Translations under genes and position numbers: made by a program | In this document: positions 1-6,200 of the stretch, piece after piece | Position numbering within the stretch: position 1 is the first letter of the stretch | Layout of the letters: each line of letters begins with the position of its first letter | The notes under the pieces: generated by a model | Database searches by the model: none | What the model saw: the letters and a program-made list of their open reading frames with translations, nothing else | What the model was told of the DNA's origin: nothing | Assembly: GCA_002779075.1 (NCBI GenBank) | Contig: PEXK01000016.1 | Location: 1 to 6,200, forward strand | DNA: 6,200 nt | Direction of reading: 5' to 3' | DNA from: Candidatus Diapherotrites archaeon CG08_land_8_20_14_0_20_30_16 | Lineage (GTDB): Archaea; Iainarchaeota; Iainarchaeia; Iainarchaeales; 0-14-0-20-30-16

Positions 1-103
1 TGTTCAACTCTCCCGAATACTTGGAGGGATTGATTTTTAGTGCAACGATGCCAAAGGCAAAAAATCAAAGTCGTGAGCCATATTAATTTAAAGAGGACAC
101 TTT

Positions 104-129
104 AGGACGGCGGGACGCAGTCCTTTTTT
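104..129 (+). terminator. GC-containing hairpin followed by a T-run, a possible terminator for an upstream plus-strand gene ending before position 87
   Basis: aggac (104-108) pairs with gtcct (120-124) around an 11-nt loop (ggcgggacgca). A T-run at 124-129 follows directly. The stem is only 5 bp, and archaeal termination mainly needs oligo-T, so this is tentative. Confidence 0.3.
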
Positions 130-179
130 ATAATAGAAATTGTTGTGTATTTTTGTTCTGTGAGTCGCCGCCTTTTTTG

Positions 180-202
180 CTTCTTTTTTTCTAAAAAAGA
201 AG
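180..202. terminator. Perfect 10-bp AT-rich palindromic hairpin about 20 nt downstream of the bPH_2 operon stop; candidate terminator or protein-binding palindrome
   Basis: cttctttttt (180-189) pairs with aaaaaagaag (193-202) around a 3-nt loop. On the minus strand it supplies an oligo-T tract just after the operon stop (222-224). A hairpin of different sequence sits at the homologous position in the right repeat copy (1345-1363). Confidence 0.4.
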
Positions 203-221
203 ATAATATTTTCGGGGGGGA

Positions 222-764
222 TTATAAGCCAGAACCATGAGTTTGTTTAACTCTTTTCATAACGAATTCTCTAATTTTTTCAGCACCATTGATATCTATT
301 GCAGGTAAATGCCCCTCACTTTGATATCTCCTATTGCCTCTTCTTCCAAACCTAAAACCATAATGGCTTCCACCATATCCTGATTGTCCAGCAGTTTCAA
401 TTTCAACAGTAGAAAATCCAAACATTCTCGCGATTATTCCTCTTCTAATATCTACATTTTGAACTCTTTCATAAGGAATAGAAGTATATTTTTTCCAAAT
501 TATACCTCTCTCTACTTTAACTGCATCGTGAGTTATTTCATAAAGATATCTATTATAAGACATACGAGCATAAATCTCGGCTACAATAATTACAAAGAAA
601 ATGTAAAAAATAATGGCGAGAACAAAACCAACTCCTGTTGAACCTCCAGCAATTATTCTCAATAATTGAAAACTCCACATTGTAACAAAAATTCCAAGAA
701 TTATTAGAGGATAGTAAGCCCGAAGTCTGAAAAGCCATCTTGCCCCAGGATGCAACTTATCCAT
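222..764 (-). CDS. YdbS/YdbT-like bacterial-type PH domain (bPH_2, formerly DUF304) membrane protein, paralog 1, 180 aa, with a Gly/Arg-rich loop insertion
   Basis: ORF-track protein. It has two N-terminal hydrophobic helices (YYPLIILGIFVTMWSF and VGFVLAIIFYIFFVIIVAEIY). These are followed by the bPH_2-type core YNRYLYEITHDAVKVERGIIWKKYTSIPYERVQNVDIRRGIIARMFGFSTVEIETAG ... LPAI ... AEKIREFV, which matches the architecture I recall for Bacillus YdbS. The ATG (762-764) lies 3 nt after the TAA stop (768-770) of the upstream paralog. AGGAG (775-779 on the minus strand) is 10 nt upstream of that ATG. Confidence 0.85.
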   Translation of the reverse strand: MDKLHPGARWLFRLRAYYPLIILGIFVTMWSFQLLRIIAGGSTGVGFVLAIIFYIFFVIIVAEIYARMSYNRYLYEITHDAVKVERGIIWKKYTSIPYERVQNVDIRRGIIARMFGFSTVEIETAGQSGYGGSHYGFRFGRRGNRRYQSEGHLPAIDINGAEKIREFVMKRVKQTHGSGL

Positions 765-767
765 TTT

Positions 768-1268
768 TTATTTTCTCCTGCTTGTAATTTTCTTCATTAC
801 AAAATTTCTAATCTCTTCAGCATGTTTCATTTCAATAGCAGGAATATTTCCCTCTGCTCCTGCTGGCCCTGAAAATCCAGCAGTTTGAATCATCACACTT
901 GAAAATCCAAACATTCTCGCGATTATTCCTCTGTGAACATCAACATTTTGTATTCTTTTATAAGGAACATTGCTGTATCTCTTCCAAATTATACCTCTTT
1001 CTAATCTCAAACCCTCATCGGTAAATTCATAAAACCAACGATTATAAGACATTTGGGCATATATCTCGCTGATAATTATAACAAAAAGAAAATAACCAAA
1101 AATAGAAAGTAAAACGATAGGTAAAATTGAACTAGAACCTGCCAAACCTAAAAACAAACCTGCAAGAGGGACGATAATCCACATTCCAAAAAATATTCCT
1201 AAGAACCCAAATAGGAAATATCCTCCAATACGAAATTGCCATTTTGCTCCAGGATGTAATTTGTTCAT
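768..1268 (-). CDS. YdbS/YdbT-like bPH_2 (DUF304) membrane protein, paralog 2, 166 aa
   Basis: Same architecture as 222-764. It has the conserved N-terminus MNKLHPGAKW, two TM helices, and the core YNRWFYEFTDEGLRLERGIIWKRYSNVPYKRIQNVDVHRGIIARMFGFSSVMIQTAG ... IPAI ... AEEIRNFV. A hand alignment of the PH core gives 41 of 62 identical residues with paralog 1. A TATA-like box lies about 27 nt upstream of the ATG. Confidence 0.85.
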   Translation of the reverse strand: MNKLHPGAKWQFRIGGYFLFGFLGIFFGMWIIVPLAGLFLGLAGSSSILPIVLLSIFGYFLFVIIISEIYAQMSYNRWFYEFTDEGLRLERGIIWKRYSNVPYKRIQNVDVHRGIIARMFGFSSVMIQTAGFSGPAGAEGNIPAIEMKHAEEIRNFVMKKITSRRK

Positions 1269-1290
1269 GTTACATAATTAAATAAGAACT

Positions 1291-1300
1291 TATTTAAAAA
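1291..1300 (-). promoter_or_regulatory. TATA-box-like element for the bPH_2 gene pair (leaderless-type spacing)
   Basis: The minus strand reads tttttaaata, centred about 27 nt upstream of the ATG at 1266-1268. That is the usual archaeal TATA-to-TSS distance. No Shine-Dalgarno sequence lies in between. Confidence 0.45.
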
Positions 1301-1316
1301 GCTTTGCAAAATTTTT

Positions 1317-1495
1317 GGGGTGGAGAAAATATTATCAATGAATTTCTTTTGTGAAACAAAAGACTATTTGTGCGAAGCACCAAGGCGGCTCACTTTTTAT
1401 TTACAACAATTTCTACAATTTAGGGGCGGGTGGTCGGGGGTTTTAAAGTGTCCTCTTTACTAACTTTTTACTCTTTATCTTTGGCTCACGATTGA
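1317..1495 (-). repeat. Right copy (inverted) of the modular repeat flanking the bPH_2 gene pair
   Basis: See the block list for 65-220. Read on the minus strand, this copy has the same block order. Its variable segments are C-rich (cccccgaccacccgcccc and ctccacccc), where the left copy read on the plus strand is G-rich. The copy lies between the thioredoxin stop (1519) and the predicted promoter of the bPH_2 pair. Confidence 0.8.
1345..1363. other. 8-bp palindromic hairpin in the right repeat copy, positional counterpart of 180-202
   Basis: tcttttgt (1345-1352) pairs with acaaaaga (1356-1363) around a 3-nt loop. Its arms have the same T-rich/A-rich character as the left-copy hairpin but a different primary sequence. 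This suggests structure is conserved rather than sequence. Confidence 0.4.
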
Positions 1496-1518
1496 GCATA
1501 ACACCTATTTCACGAACT

Positions 1519-3351
1519 TCATTTATATTTCTCAATTAAATCTTTTATTTGTTTCTCTGGGTAAGAGCCAACAAAGAAGTCTTTTGCTATCCCATCTTTA
1601 AAGAAAATTACTGTGGGTATAGACATTACACCAAACTCTTCTGCCAACGCTTCATTTTGCTCAACATCAATTTTCACTAATTTCACTTTATATTCATTGC
1701 ATAGCTTTTCTAATAAAGGACCTAAAACCTTGCAGGGGCCACAATTATGAACAAGAAAATCATTAGCAAAAAAGTTATGGGGTTCTTTTGTAGATATAAT
1801 TTGAACAGATTTTAGATAAATATTTTTAATTTTAGATATTTTATTCCAAAATAACCCACCATTAATATATTCTTTTTTTAGCCAATCTTTATATTTTTCA
1901 TAGTGTTTGAATGTTGTGGGTTTATTATTTCCTTTTATCCAACCAAACACAGTATCATAACTCAAATTTAATTTTTCTGAGATTTTTTTAATTGAATGGT
2001 TTTTAGTATATAATTGCATAGCTTTATTGTGTTTTTTTGTCCAACAGTGTCTTTCATAAATTCTTTTTTTCAAAAATTCCCCTATTTTTATTGCATTTTC
2101 TTGTTTTTGTTTGCAATAGCTATAACCTATTTTATTGCATAAATTAAATCCATTTTCATAATTTGTCGTAAATTGTAAGTGTATTATTTTTGGAGTAATA
2201 CCATCCTTTCTCACATATTTTTCATCTTCACTAAAAATATTTCTTATTTTTATTCCAAAATTTGAAAATAACTTTGATAATTGTTTAGCATATTTCAAAC
2301 CGTTTTTCAAAGATTTGGGATTTTTATGAAATTCAATATCATTTAATAATAGATGGTCACAAGGGCCTTTGTTTTCTTTTCTTTGTTCTAAAAGAATAGT
2401 TGGCTTTGGGCCATCACCCCCAATATATCCAGATAAAAACTCCTTTTGAATGTTTTTAGAAGCTTTCATTAACCAAGACGGTAGGATATAATCTGTATTT
2501 GTTTTATTTCCTATAGGTACTCCTAAAGATTTAAACAAAAGCCATAAAGAAGTAGAGCAACATTTAACCCCATAACAATGTGTTGTAAATTTCCTCCCAA
2601 AGAGATTATTCTCGCTTATTTTTTCTTTTATGTGTGTTTTAAATCCTAAAATATTTAAATCATTTTCTATTTCTTTTGCATCCTGTTTTGTTCCAACAGT
2701 AAACGATATTTCGCGATAATTATTTTTGCCAATATAAAGATTTCCATCACTAAAAAGGCTTCCAATTAATCTAGATAATATTGTAATACATTTATTATTC
2801 GTTTTAAGAGGGAGCAGCCCCTTTTTTTTTAATTCAGTAATATAATCTTTGTGAGTCATTCTTTTTTCCAGAAACTTTAATATTAAGTTTTCATCAACAA
2901 GAGTAGTATCTGAAATATCTTCTTTAAATTTTTCAAAAGAAGGATGTATAGCAACACAATCGTTAACTCTCAAATTTTCTGCGGATTTCCACCCTTTTTT
3001 TGTAAAAAATAAATGATCATTCGTAATTTTAATGTTTCTTCCATTTTCAGTAGTTATAAATTTACAATGCCCTGCTTTTTGAGATTCAAAACTTTTCAAA
3101 ATAGATGTTGTTGTCAATTTGTTTTTATTAAAGCAAAGTACATTAGAGTTTTTCTTTAAGTCTTTGGCTTTTATTATATCTCGGTTGGTTAAAGCAATAT
3201 AAGAATCAGTACTTACGCACCAACTAGCATAAAAATCAACAATTACCAATGCTTTTTTGCTAGGTTCAACTACTTCTTTGTTAATATCAAATGCTTTAGA
3301 CCCTTCCACGAAATCACCAAATTCAAAAATTAGTAAAGAAAGAAAATTCAA
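1519..3351 (-). CDS. trxA: Thioredoxin precursor interrupted by a large intein (610-aa precursor; about 118-aa mature protein from the TTG start, or 104 aa from an internal GTG)
   Basis: N-extein: ...SKKALVIVDFYASW. C-extein: CGPCKVLGPLLEKLCNEYKVKLVKIDVEQNEALAEEFGVMSIPTVIFFKDGIAKDFFVGSYPEKQIKDLIEKYK. Joined, they restore VDFYASWCGPCK plus the cis-Pro motif SIPT and the FFKDG strand of the canonical thioredoxin fold. The ORF-track start at 3349-3351 is TTG, not ATG (checked by hand), so the true start is uncertain. The stop is TGA at 1519-1521. Confidence 0.9.
   Translation of the reverse strand: MNFLSLLIFEFGDFVEGSKAFDINKEVVEPSKKALVIVDFYASWCVSTDSYIALTNRDIIKAKDLKKNSNVLCFNKNKLTTTSILKSFESQKAGHCKFITTENGRNIKITNDHLFFTKKGWKSAENLRVNDCVAIHPSFEKFKEDISDTTLVDENLILKFLEKRMTHKDYITELKKKGLLPLKTNNKCITILSRLIGSLFSDGNLYIGKNNYREISFTVGTKQDAKEIENDLNILGFKTHIKEKISENNLFGRKFTTHCYGVKCCSTSLWLLFKSLGVPIGNKTNTDYILPSWLMKASKNIQKEFLSGYIGGDGPKPTILLEQRKENKGPCDHLLLNDIEFHKNPKSLKNGLKYAKQLSKLFSNFGIKIRNIFSEDEKYVRKDGITPKIIHLQFTTNYENGFNLCNKIGYSYCKQKQENAIKIGEFLKKRIYERHCWTKKHNKAMQLYTKNHSIKKISEKLNLSYDTVFGWIKGNNKPTTFKHYEKYKDWLKKEYINGGLFWNKISKIKNIYLKSVQIISTKEPHNFFANDFLVHNCGPCKVLGPLLEKLCNEYKVKLVKIDVEQNEALAEEFGVMSIPTVIFFKDGIAKDFFVGSYPEKQIKDLIEKYK
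1744..3219 (-). mobile_element. Class-1 intein (492 aa, precursor residues 45-536) with an embedded LAGLIDADG homing endonuclease, inserted in the thioredoxin WC|GPC active site
   Basis: The intein starts with Cys1 (tgc, 3217-3219) in a block-A-like CVSTDSYIALTN. Block B is GRNIKITNDHLFF (TxxH). The C-terminal blocks are KEPHNFFANDFLVHN, ending in His-Asn (aat, 1744-1746). It is followed by the +1 Cys (tgt, 1741-1743), which is the first Cys of CGPC. Codon positions were verified by hand on the reverse complement. Confidence 0.88.
2092..2799 (-). other. LAGLIDADG homing endonuclease domain of the thioredoxin intein (boundaries approximate)
   Basis: There are two LAGLIDADG-type motifs with conserved acidic residues. 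LSRLIGSLFSDGNL is at aa 192-205 (nt 2737-2778). EFLSGYIGGDG is at aa 304-314 (nt 2410-2442). The spacing of about 110 aa is typical of a pseudo-dimeric single-chain enzyme. Confidence 0.8.
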
Positions 3352-3449: not shown

Positions 3450-6200
3450 ATGGTTGAAGATTTCCAGACAGAGCAGAAGGACAATGAAAACAAAGATTAT
3501 GCTGAGGATTTTGAGGATTTGGAAGACAAACTTGCCCCTAAAGCTAGCACTGAAACTAGTTTGCCTGAGAAAACAGAAGAGCTCGAGCCAGAATTTGAAG
3601 AAGATGATAATGTAAATCCTTTTGTTAAGAAATTTCAATACTTTTTTGATAAATATTATAAAACAAAATTAGAAAAACTAATTCAAGATTATCCCACAAA
3701 GAAAAGTTTGTACACTGATTTTAATACCATCGAACAATATGACCCTGATTTGGCAGATCAGCTTATAGATAATCCAGAATACGTGCTTGAAGCTATGCAA
3801 TTAGCAACTCAGAAGTATAAGTCTAGTTTATTAGAAGAAACAAAAGAATTTGAGCCAATTATAAGAGTAGGAAACCTGCCTAAAGATAAGCAGATTTTGA
3901 TAAAAAATATTTCTTCAAGACATATAGGCAAATTTGTTTGTGTTGAAGGTATTGTAAAGCAGTTTACAACTGTTTTGCCTAAAATAAAAAAAGCACATTG
4001 GATATGCAAAAAATGTGGTAGTGAACTAGATTTACATCAGGAAGGCCTAGATTTTAAAAAACCTAAAATGTGTCCTGAATGTAAACATAGGGAATTTATT
4101 TTAGATGAAAAAAATAGTGAATTTCAGGATTATCAAAAGTTAGAACTACAAGATCTTTTAGAAGAACTAAAAGGTGGAGAACAAGCAAGCACAATTCACG
4201 TATATGTATCAAATGATTTAGTAAATACATTTACTGCTGGTGAAAGACTAATTGCTACAGGAATATTAAAATTGAGAACACCACAAGATCTTAAACAAAC
4301 TGTTTTTGGCCAATATATTCTTTGTTCTTCTTTGGAATCAAGCAAGCAGGAATATGAAACTATTGAAATAACAAAAGAAGATGAAGAAAGAATAAAAGAA
4401 TTTTCAAAAAATCCAGAAATCTATGATTTGTTAATAGATTCTGTTGCCCCTCACATTTTTGGTCATAATGAAGTAAAAGAAGCAATCATTATGCAGTTAT
4501 TTGGAGGAATAAGAAAACATTTAATAGACAAATCAAGAATCAGAGGAAACATTCACGTATTGATAGTCGGTGATCCTGGAACTGGCAAAAGTAAACTTCT
4601 GTTAGCTGTAGCACAAATTGCTCCAAAAAGCATTTATGTCGCAGGTAAAACTGCTTCAGGAGCCGGTCTTACGGCAACAGCAGTAAAAGATGAATTTGGT
4701 GAAGGTGGTTGGACATTAAAAGCTGGTGCTTTGGTTTTAGCAAATGGCGGATTTGCAATGATTGATGAATTTGATAAAATGGATACTGAAGACAGAAGTG
4801 CAATGCATGAGGCACTTGAACAGGAATCATATCATAAAGATTTTGAAATTATGCTTTCTGATGGTACAAAAGAAAAAATAGGTAATTTGGTTGATAATTT
4901 AATTGAAAAAAACAAAACCAAAATTATACTGGGAAAAGACTGTGAACTATTAAAAGTAAATAATTTGAAAGTAATAACTACTGATTTCAAAAACACCTTT
5001 CCTATAAAAGTAAATCGAGTAAGCAGACATATTGCTCCAAATAAATTTGTTGAAATAACATATTCTAATGGTCGTAAAATAACTGTAACTCCGAGTCATC
5101 CTGTTTTTGTTTTTGAAAGCAATGAATTTATTGAAAAACCAGCAGATTCTCTTAAAGAAGGTTTGTTTTGCCCTTGTATAAATAATGGAAAATTAAAGAA
5201 ACAAAATATAATAAATTCAAACATAGGCCTTGTCTCAATTAAAAAAATACAAATTATTCCAAACAAAGATTCAAAATGGGTATATGATGTCACAGTAGAA
5301 CCTACAAAGACTTTTATCACTGGTGGTTTGGTGTTACACAATACAGTATCAATTGCGAAGGCAGGTATTGTAACATCTTTTAAAACAGAAACAACTGTTT
5401 TAGCTGCTGCAAATCCAAAATATGGTAGATTTGATGCTTATAAAACAATTCCTGAACAAATAGAAATACCACCAACATTAATGTCTAGATTTGATTTATT
5501 TTTTGTATTACAAGATATTGTTGATGAAAAAAGAGATAATGAAACAGTTTCTTCAATACTGAAAACACACAAATCTGGAGAATTGCTACAAAAAGGAAAT
5601 GTTGAAAGATTAACAGAAAGAGAAACAACAACATTGGAAAAAATAAGTTCAACACCTGCATTACCATCTGAATTTATACAAAAATATATTTCTTATGGCA
5701 GAACAAGAGTTTTTCCTGTTTTAACTGAGGCTGCTAGCAAAGCAATTCAGAAATTTTTTATTAATTTAAGGCAAAAAAGTCAGGGTGGAAGAGTTACTGT
5801 AACATACAGGCAGTTAGAAGCTTTAGTCAGATTGTCAGAAGCAAGCGCGAGAGTCAGACTCTCTGAAACTGTTGGTGAAGAGGATGCTAAAAGAGCAATT
5901 AGATTATACAAACGGTCAATGGAGCAGGTAGGTTTAGATCCTGAAACAGGAACAATTGATATTGATATTATAACAACAGGTCAATCACACAGCCAGGCAA
6001 ACAGAATGATGCGTGTTGTTGAAATAATAGGCAATATAATGAAGGAACAAAACGGCCAATGCGCAAAAATAGATACAATAGTTCAAGAAGCAGAAAAAGA
6101 AGGCATGGACAAAGGAAAAGTAAAAGAACTTGTTGAAAAACTTTTGAAAGTCGGAGATATCTATGAACCTCGAAGTTCTTGTTACATGACTACCAGCAAA
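3450..6200 (+). CDS. mcm: MCM replicative helicase, 3'-partial (917 codons open to the window edge, no stop), interrupted by a mini-intein
   Basis: Hand translation in the frame starting at ATG 3450, which is the first ATG after the in-frame TAA at 3417-3419. Zinc ribbon: CKKCG...CPECK (4005-4082). Walker A: GDPGTGKS (4569-4592). Walker B: FAMIDEFDKM. Then HEALEQE[intein]TVSIAKAGI, sensor 1 VLAAANP, arginine finger SRFDL, and sensor 2 VTYRQLEALVRLSEASAR. The C-terminal winged-helix-like end is LLKVGDIYEPRSS, so the gene is nearly complete. This ORF is not in the supplied ORF track. Confidence 0.95.
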   Translation, partial: MVEDFQTEQKDNENKDYAEDFEDLEDKLAPKASTETSLPEKTEELEPEFEEDDNVNPFVKKFQYFFDKYYKTKLEKLIQDYPTKKSLYTDFNTIEQYDPDLADQLIDNPEYVLEAMQLATQKYKSSLLEETKEFEPIIRVGNLPKDKQILIKNISSRHIGKFVCVEGIVKQFTTVLPKIKKAHWICKKCGSELDLHQEGLDFKKPKMCPECKHREFILDEKNSEFQDYQKLELQDLLEELKGGEQASTIHVYVSNDLVNTFTAGERLIATGILKLRTPQDLKQTVFGQYILCSSLESSKQEYETIEITKEDEERIKEFSKNPEIYDLLIDSVAPHIFGHNEVKEAIIMQLFGGIRKHLIDKSRIRGNIHVLIVGDPGTGKSKLLLAVAQIAPKSIYVAGKTASGAGLTATAVKDEFGEGGWTLKAGALVLANGGFAMIDEFDKMDTEDRSAMHEALEQESYHKDFEIMLSDGTKEKIGNLVDNLIEKNKTKIILGKDCELLKVNNLKVITTDFKNTFPIKVNRVSRHIAPNKFVEITYSNGRKITVTPSHPVFVFESNEFIEKPADSLKEGLFCPCINNGKLKKQNIINSNIGLVSIKKIQIIPNKDSKWVYDVTVEPTKTFITGGLVLHNTVSIAKAGIVTSFKTETTVLAAANPKYGRFDAYKTIPEQIEIPPTLMSRFDLFFVLQDIVDEKRDNETVSSILKTHKSGELLQKGNVERLTERETTTLEKISSTPALPSEFIQKYISYGRTRVFPVLTEAASKAIQKFFINLRQKSQGGRVTVTYRQLEALVRLSEASARVRLSETVGEEDAKRAIRLYKRSMEQVGLDPETGTIDIDIITTGQSHSQANRMMRVVEIIGNIMKEQNGQCAKIDTIVQEAEKEGMDKGKVKELVEKLLKVGDIYEPRSSCYMTTSK
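4827..5342 (+). mobile_element. Mini-intein (172 aa, no endonuclease domain) in MCM, Ser1 ... His-Asn with +1 Thr
   Basis: Removing 4827-5342 gives HEALEQE-TVSIAKAGI. This aligns position for position with the canonical MCM HEAMEQQTISIAKAGI. The insert starts SYHKDFEIMLSDGT (block A with Ser in place of Cys). It has block B RKITVTPSHPVFV (TxxH) and ends WVYDVTVEPTKTFITGGLVLHN, followed by Thr (aca, 5343-5345). Confidence 0.85.

Follow-up and report, generated by a model that had tools for sequence, protein, structure and literature searches.

The window (the whole 6,200-nt stretch of DNA that was analyzed) probably contains a single gene cassette that belongs to an integron-like system of site-specific recombination in Woesearchaeota and Pacearchaeota (DPANN). 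An integron consists of the integrase IntI, the attI site, and an array of cassettes, each of which ends in a folded attC site. The cassette system described here appears to be integron-like and associated with a Xer-type recombinase, which would act on a folded molecule of single-stranded DNA or RNA. Read on the minus strand, the window cassette runs in the order (G)TT, R arm, two bPH_2 genes, L arm, spacer hairpin, and an attC-like site ending in ...GATG/TT, where the slash marks the boundary. Its parts are as follows.

2-10, minus strand: R'' box, GAGTTGAAC, of the terminal attC-like site (site alignment and covariation)
8 to about -108, running off the window (3691-3819 of the extended contig L002): remainder of the folded site, down to ...TTAATCGCGATG/TT
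11-70, minus strand: spacer module Lext-a, hairpin GATTTTT...GCC-AAAG-GGC...AAAAATC, between the R'' box and the L arm
71-220, plus strand: L arm, end-module on the 3' side of the cassette; about 45 loci carry this conserved L-type (blastn map)
71-80 and 1482-1491: blocks B and B', exact inverted match TCGTGAGCCA, 10 nt
89-104 and 1444-1459: blocks C and C', exact inverted match TAAAGAGGACACTTTA, 16 nt
105-123: L-type GC hairpin of the L arm, GGACGGCGGGACGCAGTCC
134-146 and 1403-1415: blocks D and D', exact inverted match TAGAAATTGTTGT, 13 nt
161-173: block E of the L arm, GTGAGTCGCCGCC, followed by a T6 run
1384-1393: block E' of the R arm
167-174 and 1382-1389: exact inverted match GCCGCCTT, 8 nt, with GTGAG before it
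180-202: hairpin of the L arm, CTTCTTTTTTTCTAAAAAAGAAG
202-213 and 1325-1336: inner blocks F and F', cassette-specific, exact inverted match GATAATATTTTC, 12 nt; block F is followed by G7 at 214-220
222-1268, minus strand: cargo, a tandem pair of bPH_2 genes for membrane proteins (222-764 and 768-1268; Pfam PF03703, E 1e-18 to 7e-19)
1289-1300, minus strand: TATA-like box TTTTTAAATAAG, 21-32 nt upstream of the bPH_2 ATG (read from the sequence)
1317-1491, minus strand: R arm, end-module on the 5' side of the cassette (alignment of 28 long R copies)
1345-1363: hairpin of the R arm, TCTTTTGT-GAA-ACAAAAGA
1370-1380: hairpin of the R arm, GTGC-GAA-GCAC
1423-1440: R-type C-rich core, G-rich on the plus strand
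1489-1503, minus strand: cassette start and crossover region TGTTATGCTCAATCG, with GTT at 1500-1502

The inverted repeat that the first-pass annotation had reported was confirmed between positions 65-220 (plus strand) and 1317-1495 (minus strand), with all exact blocks collinear. The proposed homology of the two arms held in a MAFFT alignment, which recovered the same collinear blocks, and the 16-mer match was indeed beyond chance, as the expectation for 16-, 13-, and 12-mer inverted matches was 0.00 in 200 dinucleotide-preserving shuffles of the window. Five exact blocks of 10, 16, 13, 12, and 12 nt had been listed; the 10-mer, the 16-mer, the 13-mer, and one 12-mer were recovered, whereas the fifth block proved to be GTGAG-N-CGCC plus an 8-mer rather than a second 12-mer. 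The TAAAG-N6-CTTTA palindromes lie in blocks C and C', as claimed. GTGAGCC had been described as occurring twice in each arm, but the second copy of the left arm reads GTGAGTC in the window and GTGAGCC at most other loci. The G/C-rich inserts had been placed correctly, but their description as non-conserved cores was wrong: the arms are of two distinct and highly conserved types, R and L, and the GC-rich cores are specific to each type and fixed across about 100 loci.

These loci, which come from 22 species genomes of Woese-, Pace-, and Nanoarchaeota and from many metagenomes, bear out the suggestion of a dispersed family. The C-N28-D pattern was found in 28 stretches from the 22 species genomes, plus 72 metagenome stretches. 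Each facing pair (20/20) consisted of one R and one L arm, and the cargo of 1.1-3.9 kb between them was unrelated from locus to locus, in agreement with the earlier proposal that the arms bracket variable cargo. The cargo included type II restriction-modification systems, methyltransferases, APH, MFS, ExoVII, and others, and cargo families were 90-100% identical between loci. No transposase or integrase was seen in the cargo of the 20 facing pairs, and the suggestion of a non-autonomous mobile cassette without a transposase was upheld. The inner block F is cassette-specific, yet it matched between both arms in 11 of 12 cases, including GATAATATTTTC of the window; this matching was judged by motifs at fixed positions, a permutation test being confounded by AT-rich chance matches. 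An alternative B block, TTGCAAATTCTC, was shared by the two arms of each of the L017/L081 and L059 cassettes, and one cassette (L010) had mismatched B blocks. The hairpins of the R arm occurred in alternative compensatory versions among the 28 aligned long copies; RNAalifold on the R arm alone yielded 3 covarying pairs, and MAFFT misaligns the alternative hairpins. Many cassettes of the same arrays hold the core folded site alone; the arms are therefore an optional module. A full L arm beside a full R arm was never seen at a chromosomal junction.

Several other identities of the arms were considered and rejected. A viral origin was set aside because the arm pattern had 0 matches among IMG/VR viral contigs. 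The recurrence of the arms around unrelated cargo at about 100 loci led to the rejection of an archaeal replication origin (ORB elements with G-strings near MCM). A promoter/terminator pair for the cargo does not fit a cargo whose orientation is not fixed and that has TATA-like boxes of its own. Stems for rRNA processing, or fragmented rRNA, were considered for conserved inverted repeats around 1.4-3.9 kb, but neither the window nor any of 19 paired loci gave an rRNA match in Rfam. A tRNA or split tRNA was rejected, as none was found by ARAGORN.

The boundaries of the cassettes were defined by where conservation starts and stops. On the R side, the R copies are conserved from exactly (G)TT onward, which marks their outer edge (1500-1502 in the window). 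On the far side, it stops at GATGTT, about 190 nt past the L arm, which is off the window and inside the attC-like site. The cassettes of L068 and L106 are homologous exactly between both boundary points and differ in their flanks, and the same cassettes recur in different contexts; the bPH_2 cargo itself was seen in two further genomic contexts (L049 and L080), three in all. The TATA-like box of the window lies inside the arms and is a putative promoter of the bPH_2 cargo's own, and other cassettes have similar TATA-like boxes just inside R. The 15-mer TGTTATGCTCAATCG was found again at the far end of the cassette (L002 3806-3820) with 100% identity and a spacing of 1608 nt. The window cassette is atypical in that no xerA adjoins it and both of its junctions have the same 15-mer. 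No empty site was shown by synteny, as an exact-protein look-up with the thioredoxin led to nothing but the same locus and a contig ending inside R.

The site at the end of each cassette folds into three helices with 30 base pairs, forming a three-way junction of 115-190 nt. Pairing was found in 95.1% of cells, compared with 86.7% in shuffles, and 17 of the 30 pairs had changed on both sides, compared with 6.0 +/- 1.6 in shuffles (0/500 reached 17) and at most 8 in slid-partner controls. As an imperfect palindrome, R''-L''...L'-R', the folded site has extrahelical bases between its boxes, in the form of a GA bulge of 2 nt and another bulge of 1 nt. Its R boxes, GTTGAAC and GTTCAAC, agree with the attC consensus (RYYYAAC and GTTRRRY) at 6 of 7 positions, and the R and L boxes are nearly contiguous. 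A covariance model of the site had 139 matches in 598 kb, including that of the window cassette (L002 3691-3819, 138.5 bits). In every locus with at least two sites, all were on a single strand and arranged head-to-tail, with at most 8 per locus (maps including L100, L079, L055, and L063). The R'' box fitted the start of its own cassette better than that of the next one in 17 of 19 informative cases, with means of 5.16 and 3.32 of 6 positions, respectively. This own-start rule reaches outside the main family, as in GCGTATAAC with GTTATACGC; the start of the window cassette, GTTATGCTC, goes against it, being unpaired with its own R'' box. Such pairing of a terminal site with the start of its own cassette implies a unit that is, or at one time was, circular, being cut and rejoined at G/TT.

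The arms most likely extend the stem of this folded recombination site. In a circular or single-stranded cassette, the two arms would be the halves of a long stem, which would lengthen the folded site to a rod of about 585 nt with helices B, C, D, E, and F and arm-specific GC-rich side loops. Such a stem may stabilize or present the site, or serve as an accessory sequence. The spacer Lext-a is kept in 30 extended L-type copies and is missing in L066, where the L arm directly abuts the R'' box. The joined L-site-R junction folded into a single rod, with z = -11.7 for DNA and -9.1 for RNA; this folding follows by construction from the inverted repeat and is therefore not independent evidence.

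The most recurrent protein of the loci was a XerA-type tyrosine recombinase (19 locus entries, about 17 distinct). In 9 distinct loci, xerA lies 45-110 nt outside the first cassette and is directed away from the array. IntI is a tyrosine recombinase with an additional IntI-specific domain around patch III. The recombinase of the loci, 261-292 aa in length, scored 225-258 bits with NCBIfam NF040815 (recomb_XerA_Arch, cut-off 220) and 187-214 bits with TIGR02249 (IntI), below the cut-off of 265; the latter match was in two pieces, skipping profile positions from about 179 to 236, so the IntI-specific insert is absent. Its closest solved structures in the PDB were XerA of P. abyssi and T. acidophilum. 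Between xerA and the first (G)TT was a dif-like palindrome or TAATAGATGTT, a layout that fits attI. The palindrome is intact and outside the array, which begins 1-3 nt past its right arm. The dif-like palindromes vary with the XerA clade and the cassette cores do not, which makes it doubtful that XerA recognizes the cassette site by its sequence. XerA or a paralogue would be the candidate that catalyzes cassette insertion and excision. Adjacent XerA proteins were 43-74% identical, whereas adjacent R arms were 92-99% identical in DNA, and loci with related XerA had no other genes in common. Arms and cargo that are near-identical across hosts with very divergent XerA point to a horizontal spread of the cassettes.

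The strong structure of the arms and the site could also mean that they are transcribed and act as RNA, either as long processing stems, like the helices flanking archaeal rRNAs, that lead to cleavage or circularization of the cassette transcript, or as independent ncRNA genes. The helices are rich in compensatory changes between invariant single-stranded blocks, loops of the C-UUC-G type (CTTCG) recur, the junction folds strongly as RNA, the first gene is directed away from R in 12 of 18 cassettes, and the conservation of the arms is extreme relative to that of the host XerA. However, neither the arms nor the site matched any family of Rfam 15 (E <= 10 for the window and E <= 5 for L001/L002), and at gathering thresholds the 19 paired loci gave a sole match, an unrelated tRNA in L067. 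The counts of G.U versus A.C showed no consistent bias for the strand of folding, the cargo orientation is reversed in L063, L084, and L086, and TATA-like boxes belonging to the cargo lie inside the arms. A function as RNA alone would leave the GTT boundaries, the own-start rule, the arrays, and the link to a recombinase unexplained, and this reading is considered unlikely.

The remaining two explanations treat the arms as repeats. Passive intergenic repeats, that is, REP/BIME-like mosaic palindromes that were homogenized or spread in genomes and have no present mobility, would make the cargo simply the genes between them. This agrees with the modular make-up (hairpin T, the L core, Lext, and the inner section of R are found fragmented and variously combined) and with decayed copies such as that left of the window; it is quite improbable in view of identical cassettes with identical boundaries in different contexts, the own-start complementarity, the perfect co-orientation of the sites, and the similarity of arms and cargo between hosts with very divergent XerA. 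A non-autonomous transposon, MITE-like or composite, with the arms as terminal inverted repeats and a transposase acting in trans, would account for variable cargo between long imperfect inverted repeats and for contigs that frequently end at the arms, as a multicopy repeat would cause. The first-pass annotation had likened the arms to such termini. This comparison failed, as conserved sequence continues about 190 nt past the L arm to a unit end at GATG/TT in the folded site, and the inverted repeats are therefore not terminal. Apart from the GTT shared by both junctions, there was no target-site duplication, and in about 100 loci (about 600 kb), no transposase was found among the 25 ORF clusters that recurred most often or, in the best 25 of 50 matched Pfam families, among 43 cassette proteins. 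The enzyme associated with the co-oriented site arrays is a XerA-family tyrosine recombinase rather than a transposase, and its gene lies outside the array. A transposon is thus very unlikely, and an integron-like cassette is the preferred reading.

Little is understood of how DPANN archaea, which are host-dependent and have tiny genomes, acquire and exchange accessory genes. The integron-like system may, as a more tentative proposal, represent a gene-capture platform of Woese- and Pacearchaeota that was not recognized before, with a Xer-type recombinase without the IntI domain, a folded three-way-junction site, a rod of about 585 nt in many cassettes, circular and probably single-stranded intermediates, and a pool rich in restriction-modification systems that is common to very divergent hosts. 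No published description of an integron-like cassette system of this sort was found in the literature searched. If the integron-like reading is right, it would describe a concrete and widespread route of horizontal gene flow in DPANN via cassette arrays tied to a Xer-type recombinase. It would also mean that the integron principle works without the IntI-specific domain, provide a natural and very long structure-specific recombination site to study, and explain both the assembly breaks seen here in DPANN and the integrase-less attC clusters known from these orders. Purified XerA and synthetic folded sites would make the system open to a direct test.

The arms resemble REP/BIME and MITE/foldback elements in that they are intergenic, palindromic, modular, multicopy, and assembly-breaking, but differ in their precise GTT boundaries, whole gene cargo, own-start pairing, and arrays tied to a tyrosine recombinase. 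The pdif modules of Acinetobacter are likewise discrete accessory-gene modules between inverted recombination-related repeats, attributed to Xer and without a recombinase of their own; however, pdif sites are simple 28-bp duplex sites (XerC/D, plasmids) of alternating orientation, whereas here all sites are folded palindromes that point the same way, and the inverted arms form long accessory modules. IMEX (CTX-phi, TLC-phi, and VGJ-phi at the Vibrio dif site) are integrase-less elements that borrow a host Xer-type recombinase and accumulate in tandem beside a dif-like site, and in CTX-phi, Xer is able to act on a folded single-stranded hairpin. IMEX insert into the central region of dif, with 11-6-11 dif-like sites left at each junction. 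Unlike IMEX, the elements here are simple cassettes rather than phages, with no match among viral contigs; their junctions are of the form ...TTAATCGCGATG/TTCAACTCAATCG rather than 11-6-11 dif-like sites, and the dif-like palindrome remains intact outside the array.

Parallels with integrons are numerous: co-oriented arrays of promoter-poor accessory-gene cassettes with the site at the 3' end; an imperfect palindrome with bulged bases that ends each cassette, conserved in structure and variable in sequence; a crossover at G/TT with an R'' complementary to the first bases of its own cassette; and a tyrosine recombinase gene at the head of the array that is directed away from it. On the other hand, the recombinase here is XerA-type without the IntI-specific insert, the R boxes (GTTCAAC and GTTGAAC) agree with GTTRRRY and RYYYAAC at 6 of 7 positions, R and L boxes lie almost back to back without an unpaired spacer of 5-6 nt, and the site, of 115-190 nt, takes the form of a three-way junction. 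In many cassettes, conserved arms of 150-300 nt on each side would bring the stem to about 585 nt. The cassettes are often 1-4 kb with 1-7 genes in either orientation, and between very divergent hosts the sites share at least 90% identity. Ghaly et al. (2022; PMC9668308) described integrons of archaea together with CALINs, which are attC clusters without an integrase, and listed Pace- and Woesearchaeales genomes that have 2-4 attC sites but lack IntI. The CALINs of Pace- and Woesearchaeales in that study may be the same arrays as those described here.

The DNA of the window is archaeal and AT-rich, and contains two tandem bPH_2 genes between the two arms of an inverted repeat.

Features of the window and collinear matched blocks of its arms, from outer to inner
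About 106 nt before position 1 (off the window): end of the cassette
71-220, + strand: L arm
1317-1491, - strand: R arm
1500-1502, - strand: GTT, start of the cassette
1519-3351, - strand: thioredoxin gene with an intein (Pfam Intein_splicing)
3450-6200, + strand: MCM helicase gene with an intein (Pfam Intein_splicing), cut off by the window end
Block B: TCGTGAGCCA
Block C: TAAAGAGGACACTTTA
Block D: TAGAAATTGTTGT
Block E: GTGAG.CGCC
Block F, window version: GATAATATTTTC

Blocks B, C, D, E, and F are exact and common to 65-220 (+) and 1317-1495 (-), and shuffled windows indicated that zero inverted matches of 16, 13, or 12 nt are expected by chance. Neither Rfam nor ARAGORN provided a match to the arms. 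Block comparison confirmed the arm coordinates and motifs of the first-pass annotation apart from small corrections: a single 12-mer match was found instead of two, and GTGAGCC, reported twice per arm, is not repeated in the left arm, whose second copy is GTGAGTC. The bPH_2 genes are a tandem duplicate (379-625 versus 868-1114, 73% identity over 247 nt of DNA). Both housekeeping genes flanking the cassette (thioredoxin and MCM) are intein-bearing.

A search pattern consisting of blocks C and D with a gap of 15-45 nt was identified in 28 stretches of 22 species-representative genomes, nearly all of which were Woese-, Pace-, or Nanoarchaeota MAGs, and in 72 metagenome stretches; the arms thus form the dispersed family that had been envisaged. 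Numerous arm matches were located at contig ends, the pattern that a multicopy repeat should give. Arms were also present on contigs labelled 'bacterium' (L021, L022, and L031) and 'Staskawiczbacteria' (L026), i.e., bacterial or CPR; these labels likely result from mis-binning or mislabelling, and cross-domain transfer is possible. Reading of the copies revealed two distinct types, both highly conserved: the L type is marked by GGACGGCGGGACGCTGTCC as its core and by the hairpin CTTCTTTTTTTCTAAAAAAGAAG, and the R type combines AAACCCCCGACCACCCGCCCC as its core with several successive hairpins. The GC cores, previously described as variable, are therefore fixed signatures of the arm types. The R-arm core (window 1423-1440) is in all loci a C-rich tract, CCCCC-N-ACCACCC-N-CCCC, which is G-rich on the window + strand; its C runs are kept and the interrupting bases are variable (G/A/T). 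This tract is conspicuous against DNA of ~30% GC, and might act as an i-motif, a G-quadruplex, or a binding pad.

Facing arm pairs consisted of one R and one L arm in 20/20 loci, and enclosed 1.1-3.9 kb of cargo that differed from locus to locus without relation, including type II restriction-modification systems, SAM methyltransferases, APH kinase, MFS transporter, GNAT, DnaJ, exonuclease VII, and S-layer-like proteins, with genes in both directions. The window cassette had been noted to lack a transposase, and no transposase or integrase was found among the cargo of the paired loci either. In aligned extended copies, conservation continued beyond the L arm for ~190 nt further out and broke off abruptly at ...CTTCCCTTAATCGCGATGTT; on the R side, it started precisely at (G)TTCAACTCAATCGTGAGCC, and the flank was variable up to that base. 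The cassettes of loci L068 and L106 carried 90% identical cargo, with homology exactly between the (G)TT start and the GATG|TT end and unrelated flanks. The bPH_2 cassette was found in three contexts: downstream of the thioredoxin gene in the window, adjoining a recombinase gene (L049), and within an array, following a Cys-rich protein gene (L080). The longer contig of the window locus (L002) reaches 1 kb past the left edge of the window. In this contig (3810-4574), GAGTTAGTTGCAATT lies between a 49-aa ORF and a MazG gene and matches the post-crossover flank of L010, and the spacer-module piece GCACTAAAAATCAATCTCT recurs within the end of the 49-aa ORF; this stretch looks like further decayed cassettes.

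The ~125 nt preceding GATG|TT contained an imperfect palindrome, an attC-like terminal site composed, in order, of R'' (GAGTTGAAC), L'' (AGCGATTAAAG), two internal hairpins, L' (CTTAATCGCGAT), and R' (GTTCAAC), with one 2-nt and one 1-nt bulge. Only its R'' box lies inside the window (2-10). RNAalifold predicted three helices from 22 distinct copies, and these are supported by pair counts: 95.1% of the cells were paired versus 86.7% in shuffles, and both-side changes occurred in 17/30 pairs versus 6.0 ± 1.6 in shuffles (17 was reached in 0/500), or at most 8 pairs when the partner was slid by 1-3 columns as a control. According to integron logic, R'' should pair with GTT and the first six bases of its own cassette, not those of the next one. 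The own start was the better match in 17 of the 19 informative cassettes (mean of 5.16 versus 3.32 of 6), and such matches were not confined to the main family (GCGTATAAC with GTTATACGC, GAATATAAC with GTTATATTC, and TCGTTGAAC with GTTCAACGA). Such pairing is the classic hallmark of units that form circles and undergo recombination at G|TT.

A covariance model detected 139 terminal sites in 598 kb of fetched loci. The sites were co-stranded in every locus holding at least two, with a maximum of eight per locus and a spacing of 0.7-3 kb. Many cassettes carried the terminal site without arms, which makes the arms an optional part. Among the proteins of the loci, a tyrosine recombinase of 261-292 aa recurred most often (19 locus entries, ~17 distinct). 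In nine distinct loci, its gene pointed away from the array, at a distance of 45-110 nt outward from the start of the first cassette. The protein passed NCBIfam recomb_XerA_Arch (225-258 bits versus a cut-off of 220), and its closest solved structures were XerA of P. abyssi and T. acidophilum. The integron-integrase model was failed, with a two-piece match that skips the IntI-specific segment. The stretch separating xerA from the first (G)TT contained a TATA-like box together with a site of one of two kinds: in many cases a dif-like 11-6-11 palindrome (e.g., ATGGCATCATAA-CTTTAT-TTATGATGCCAT), and in another XerA clade TAATAGATGTT. The dif-like palindromes directly adjoin xerA before the first cassette (L068 985-1014, L028, L032, L023, and L063), and their versions differ by XerA clade (CATAA-N6-TTATG or ATATAACC-N6-GGTTAATAT). 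Such a pair is comparable to a xerA-dif module such as xerS-difSL of streptococci.

The XerA proteins were 43-74% identical, whereas the adjacent R arms were 92-99% identical in DNA and cargo families were 90-100% identical across loci. This disparity in sequence points to a cassette pool that would be common to the hosts and move horizontally. Furthermore, one MAG (CAYQQA01) harbored two XerA paralogues with 41% identity (L010 1419-2204 and L012 3889-4695). The two genes adjoin cassette starts of different site subfamilies (GTTAGTTTC and GTTCAACTC), which may mean that recombinases and sites have co-specialised or that the bin is mixed.

Circularisation of a cassette would bring the L arm, spacer, site, and R arm together into one contiguous stretch. 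The joined sequence folded into a single 585-nt rod (z = -11.7 as DNA and -9.1 as RNA), in which blocks B, C, D, E, and F were paired and the arm-specific cores bulged out; this fold is not independent evidence because it is given by construction from the inverted repeat. The innermost block F was cassette-specific (GGGGCACTCTC, CGGGAGTTTCG, GGGGAGTTCTG, GGGCACTTTAC, and GGGGCAGATTTT, besides the window version), yet agreed between the two arms of a cassette in 11 of the 12 cases that could be read. In one subfamily, block B was changed to TTGCAAATTCTC in both arms, and R'/R'' co-changed to GTTAGTTTC/GAAACTAAC. In L066, the L arm directly abutted R'', mirroring the R arm that abuts R'. From these three observations, we infer that the arms are an extension of the folded recombination-site stem, or an accessory sequence. 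No strand-consistent wobble bias was found in the helices of the site and arms; what folds may be RNA, single-stranded DNA, or a cruciform. A full L arm beside a full R arm was never seen in the chromosome among the mapped loci, possibly because a long perfect palindrome is avoided. In L038, L058, L061, L064, L091, L102, and L106, the R arm after the crossover is preceded by an L module without its core (blocks B'-E').

Several points do not fit this scheme. The window cassette has no adjacent xerA, its start (GTTATGCTC) is unpaired with its own R'' box, and the same 15-mer (TGTTATGCTCAATCG) occurs at both of its junctions; the latter two suggest that the cassette inserted at a secondary site, or that the exchange involved an overlap of 7-8 bp. 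The B blocks of the two arms are mismatched in L010. In addition, the cassette cores are constant while the dif-like palindromes follow the XerA clade, which casts doubt on sequence-specific recognition of the cassette site by XerA.

By analogy, the cassette system appears to work like an integron. However, the integron family is defined by IntI, and the present system is not a member. IMEX elements and pdif modules borrow a Xer-type enzyme, as the present system would, but the junctions here are not dif-like. Archaeal integrons with true IntI have been described, together with Pace- and Woesearchaeales genomes that contain 2-4 attC sites without an integrase (Ghaly et al., 2022; PMC9668308). 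These integrase-less attC sites may be the cassette arrays reported here. In the literature searched, neither cassette arrays linked to xerA nor the arms were described for DPANN archaea.
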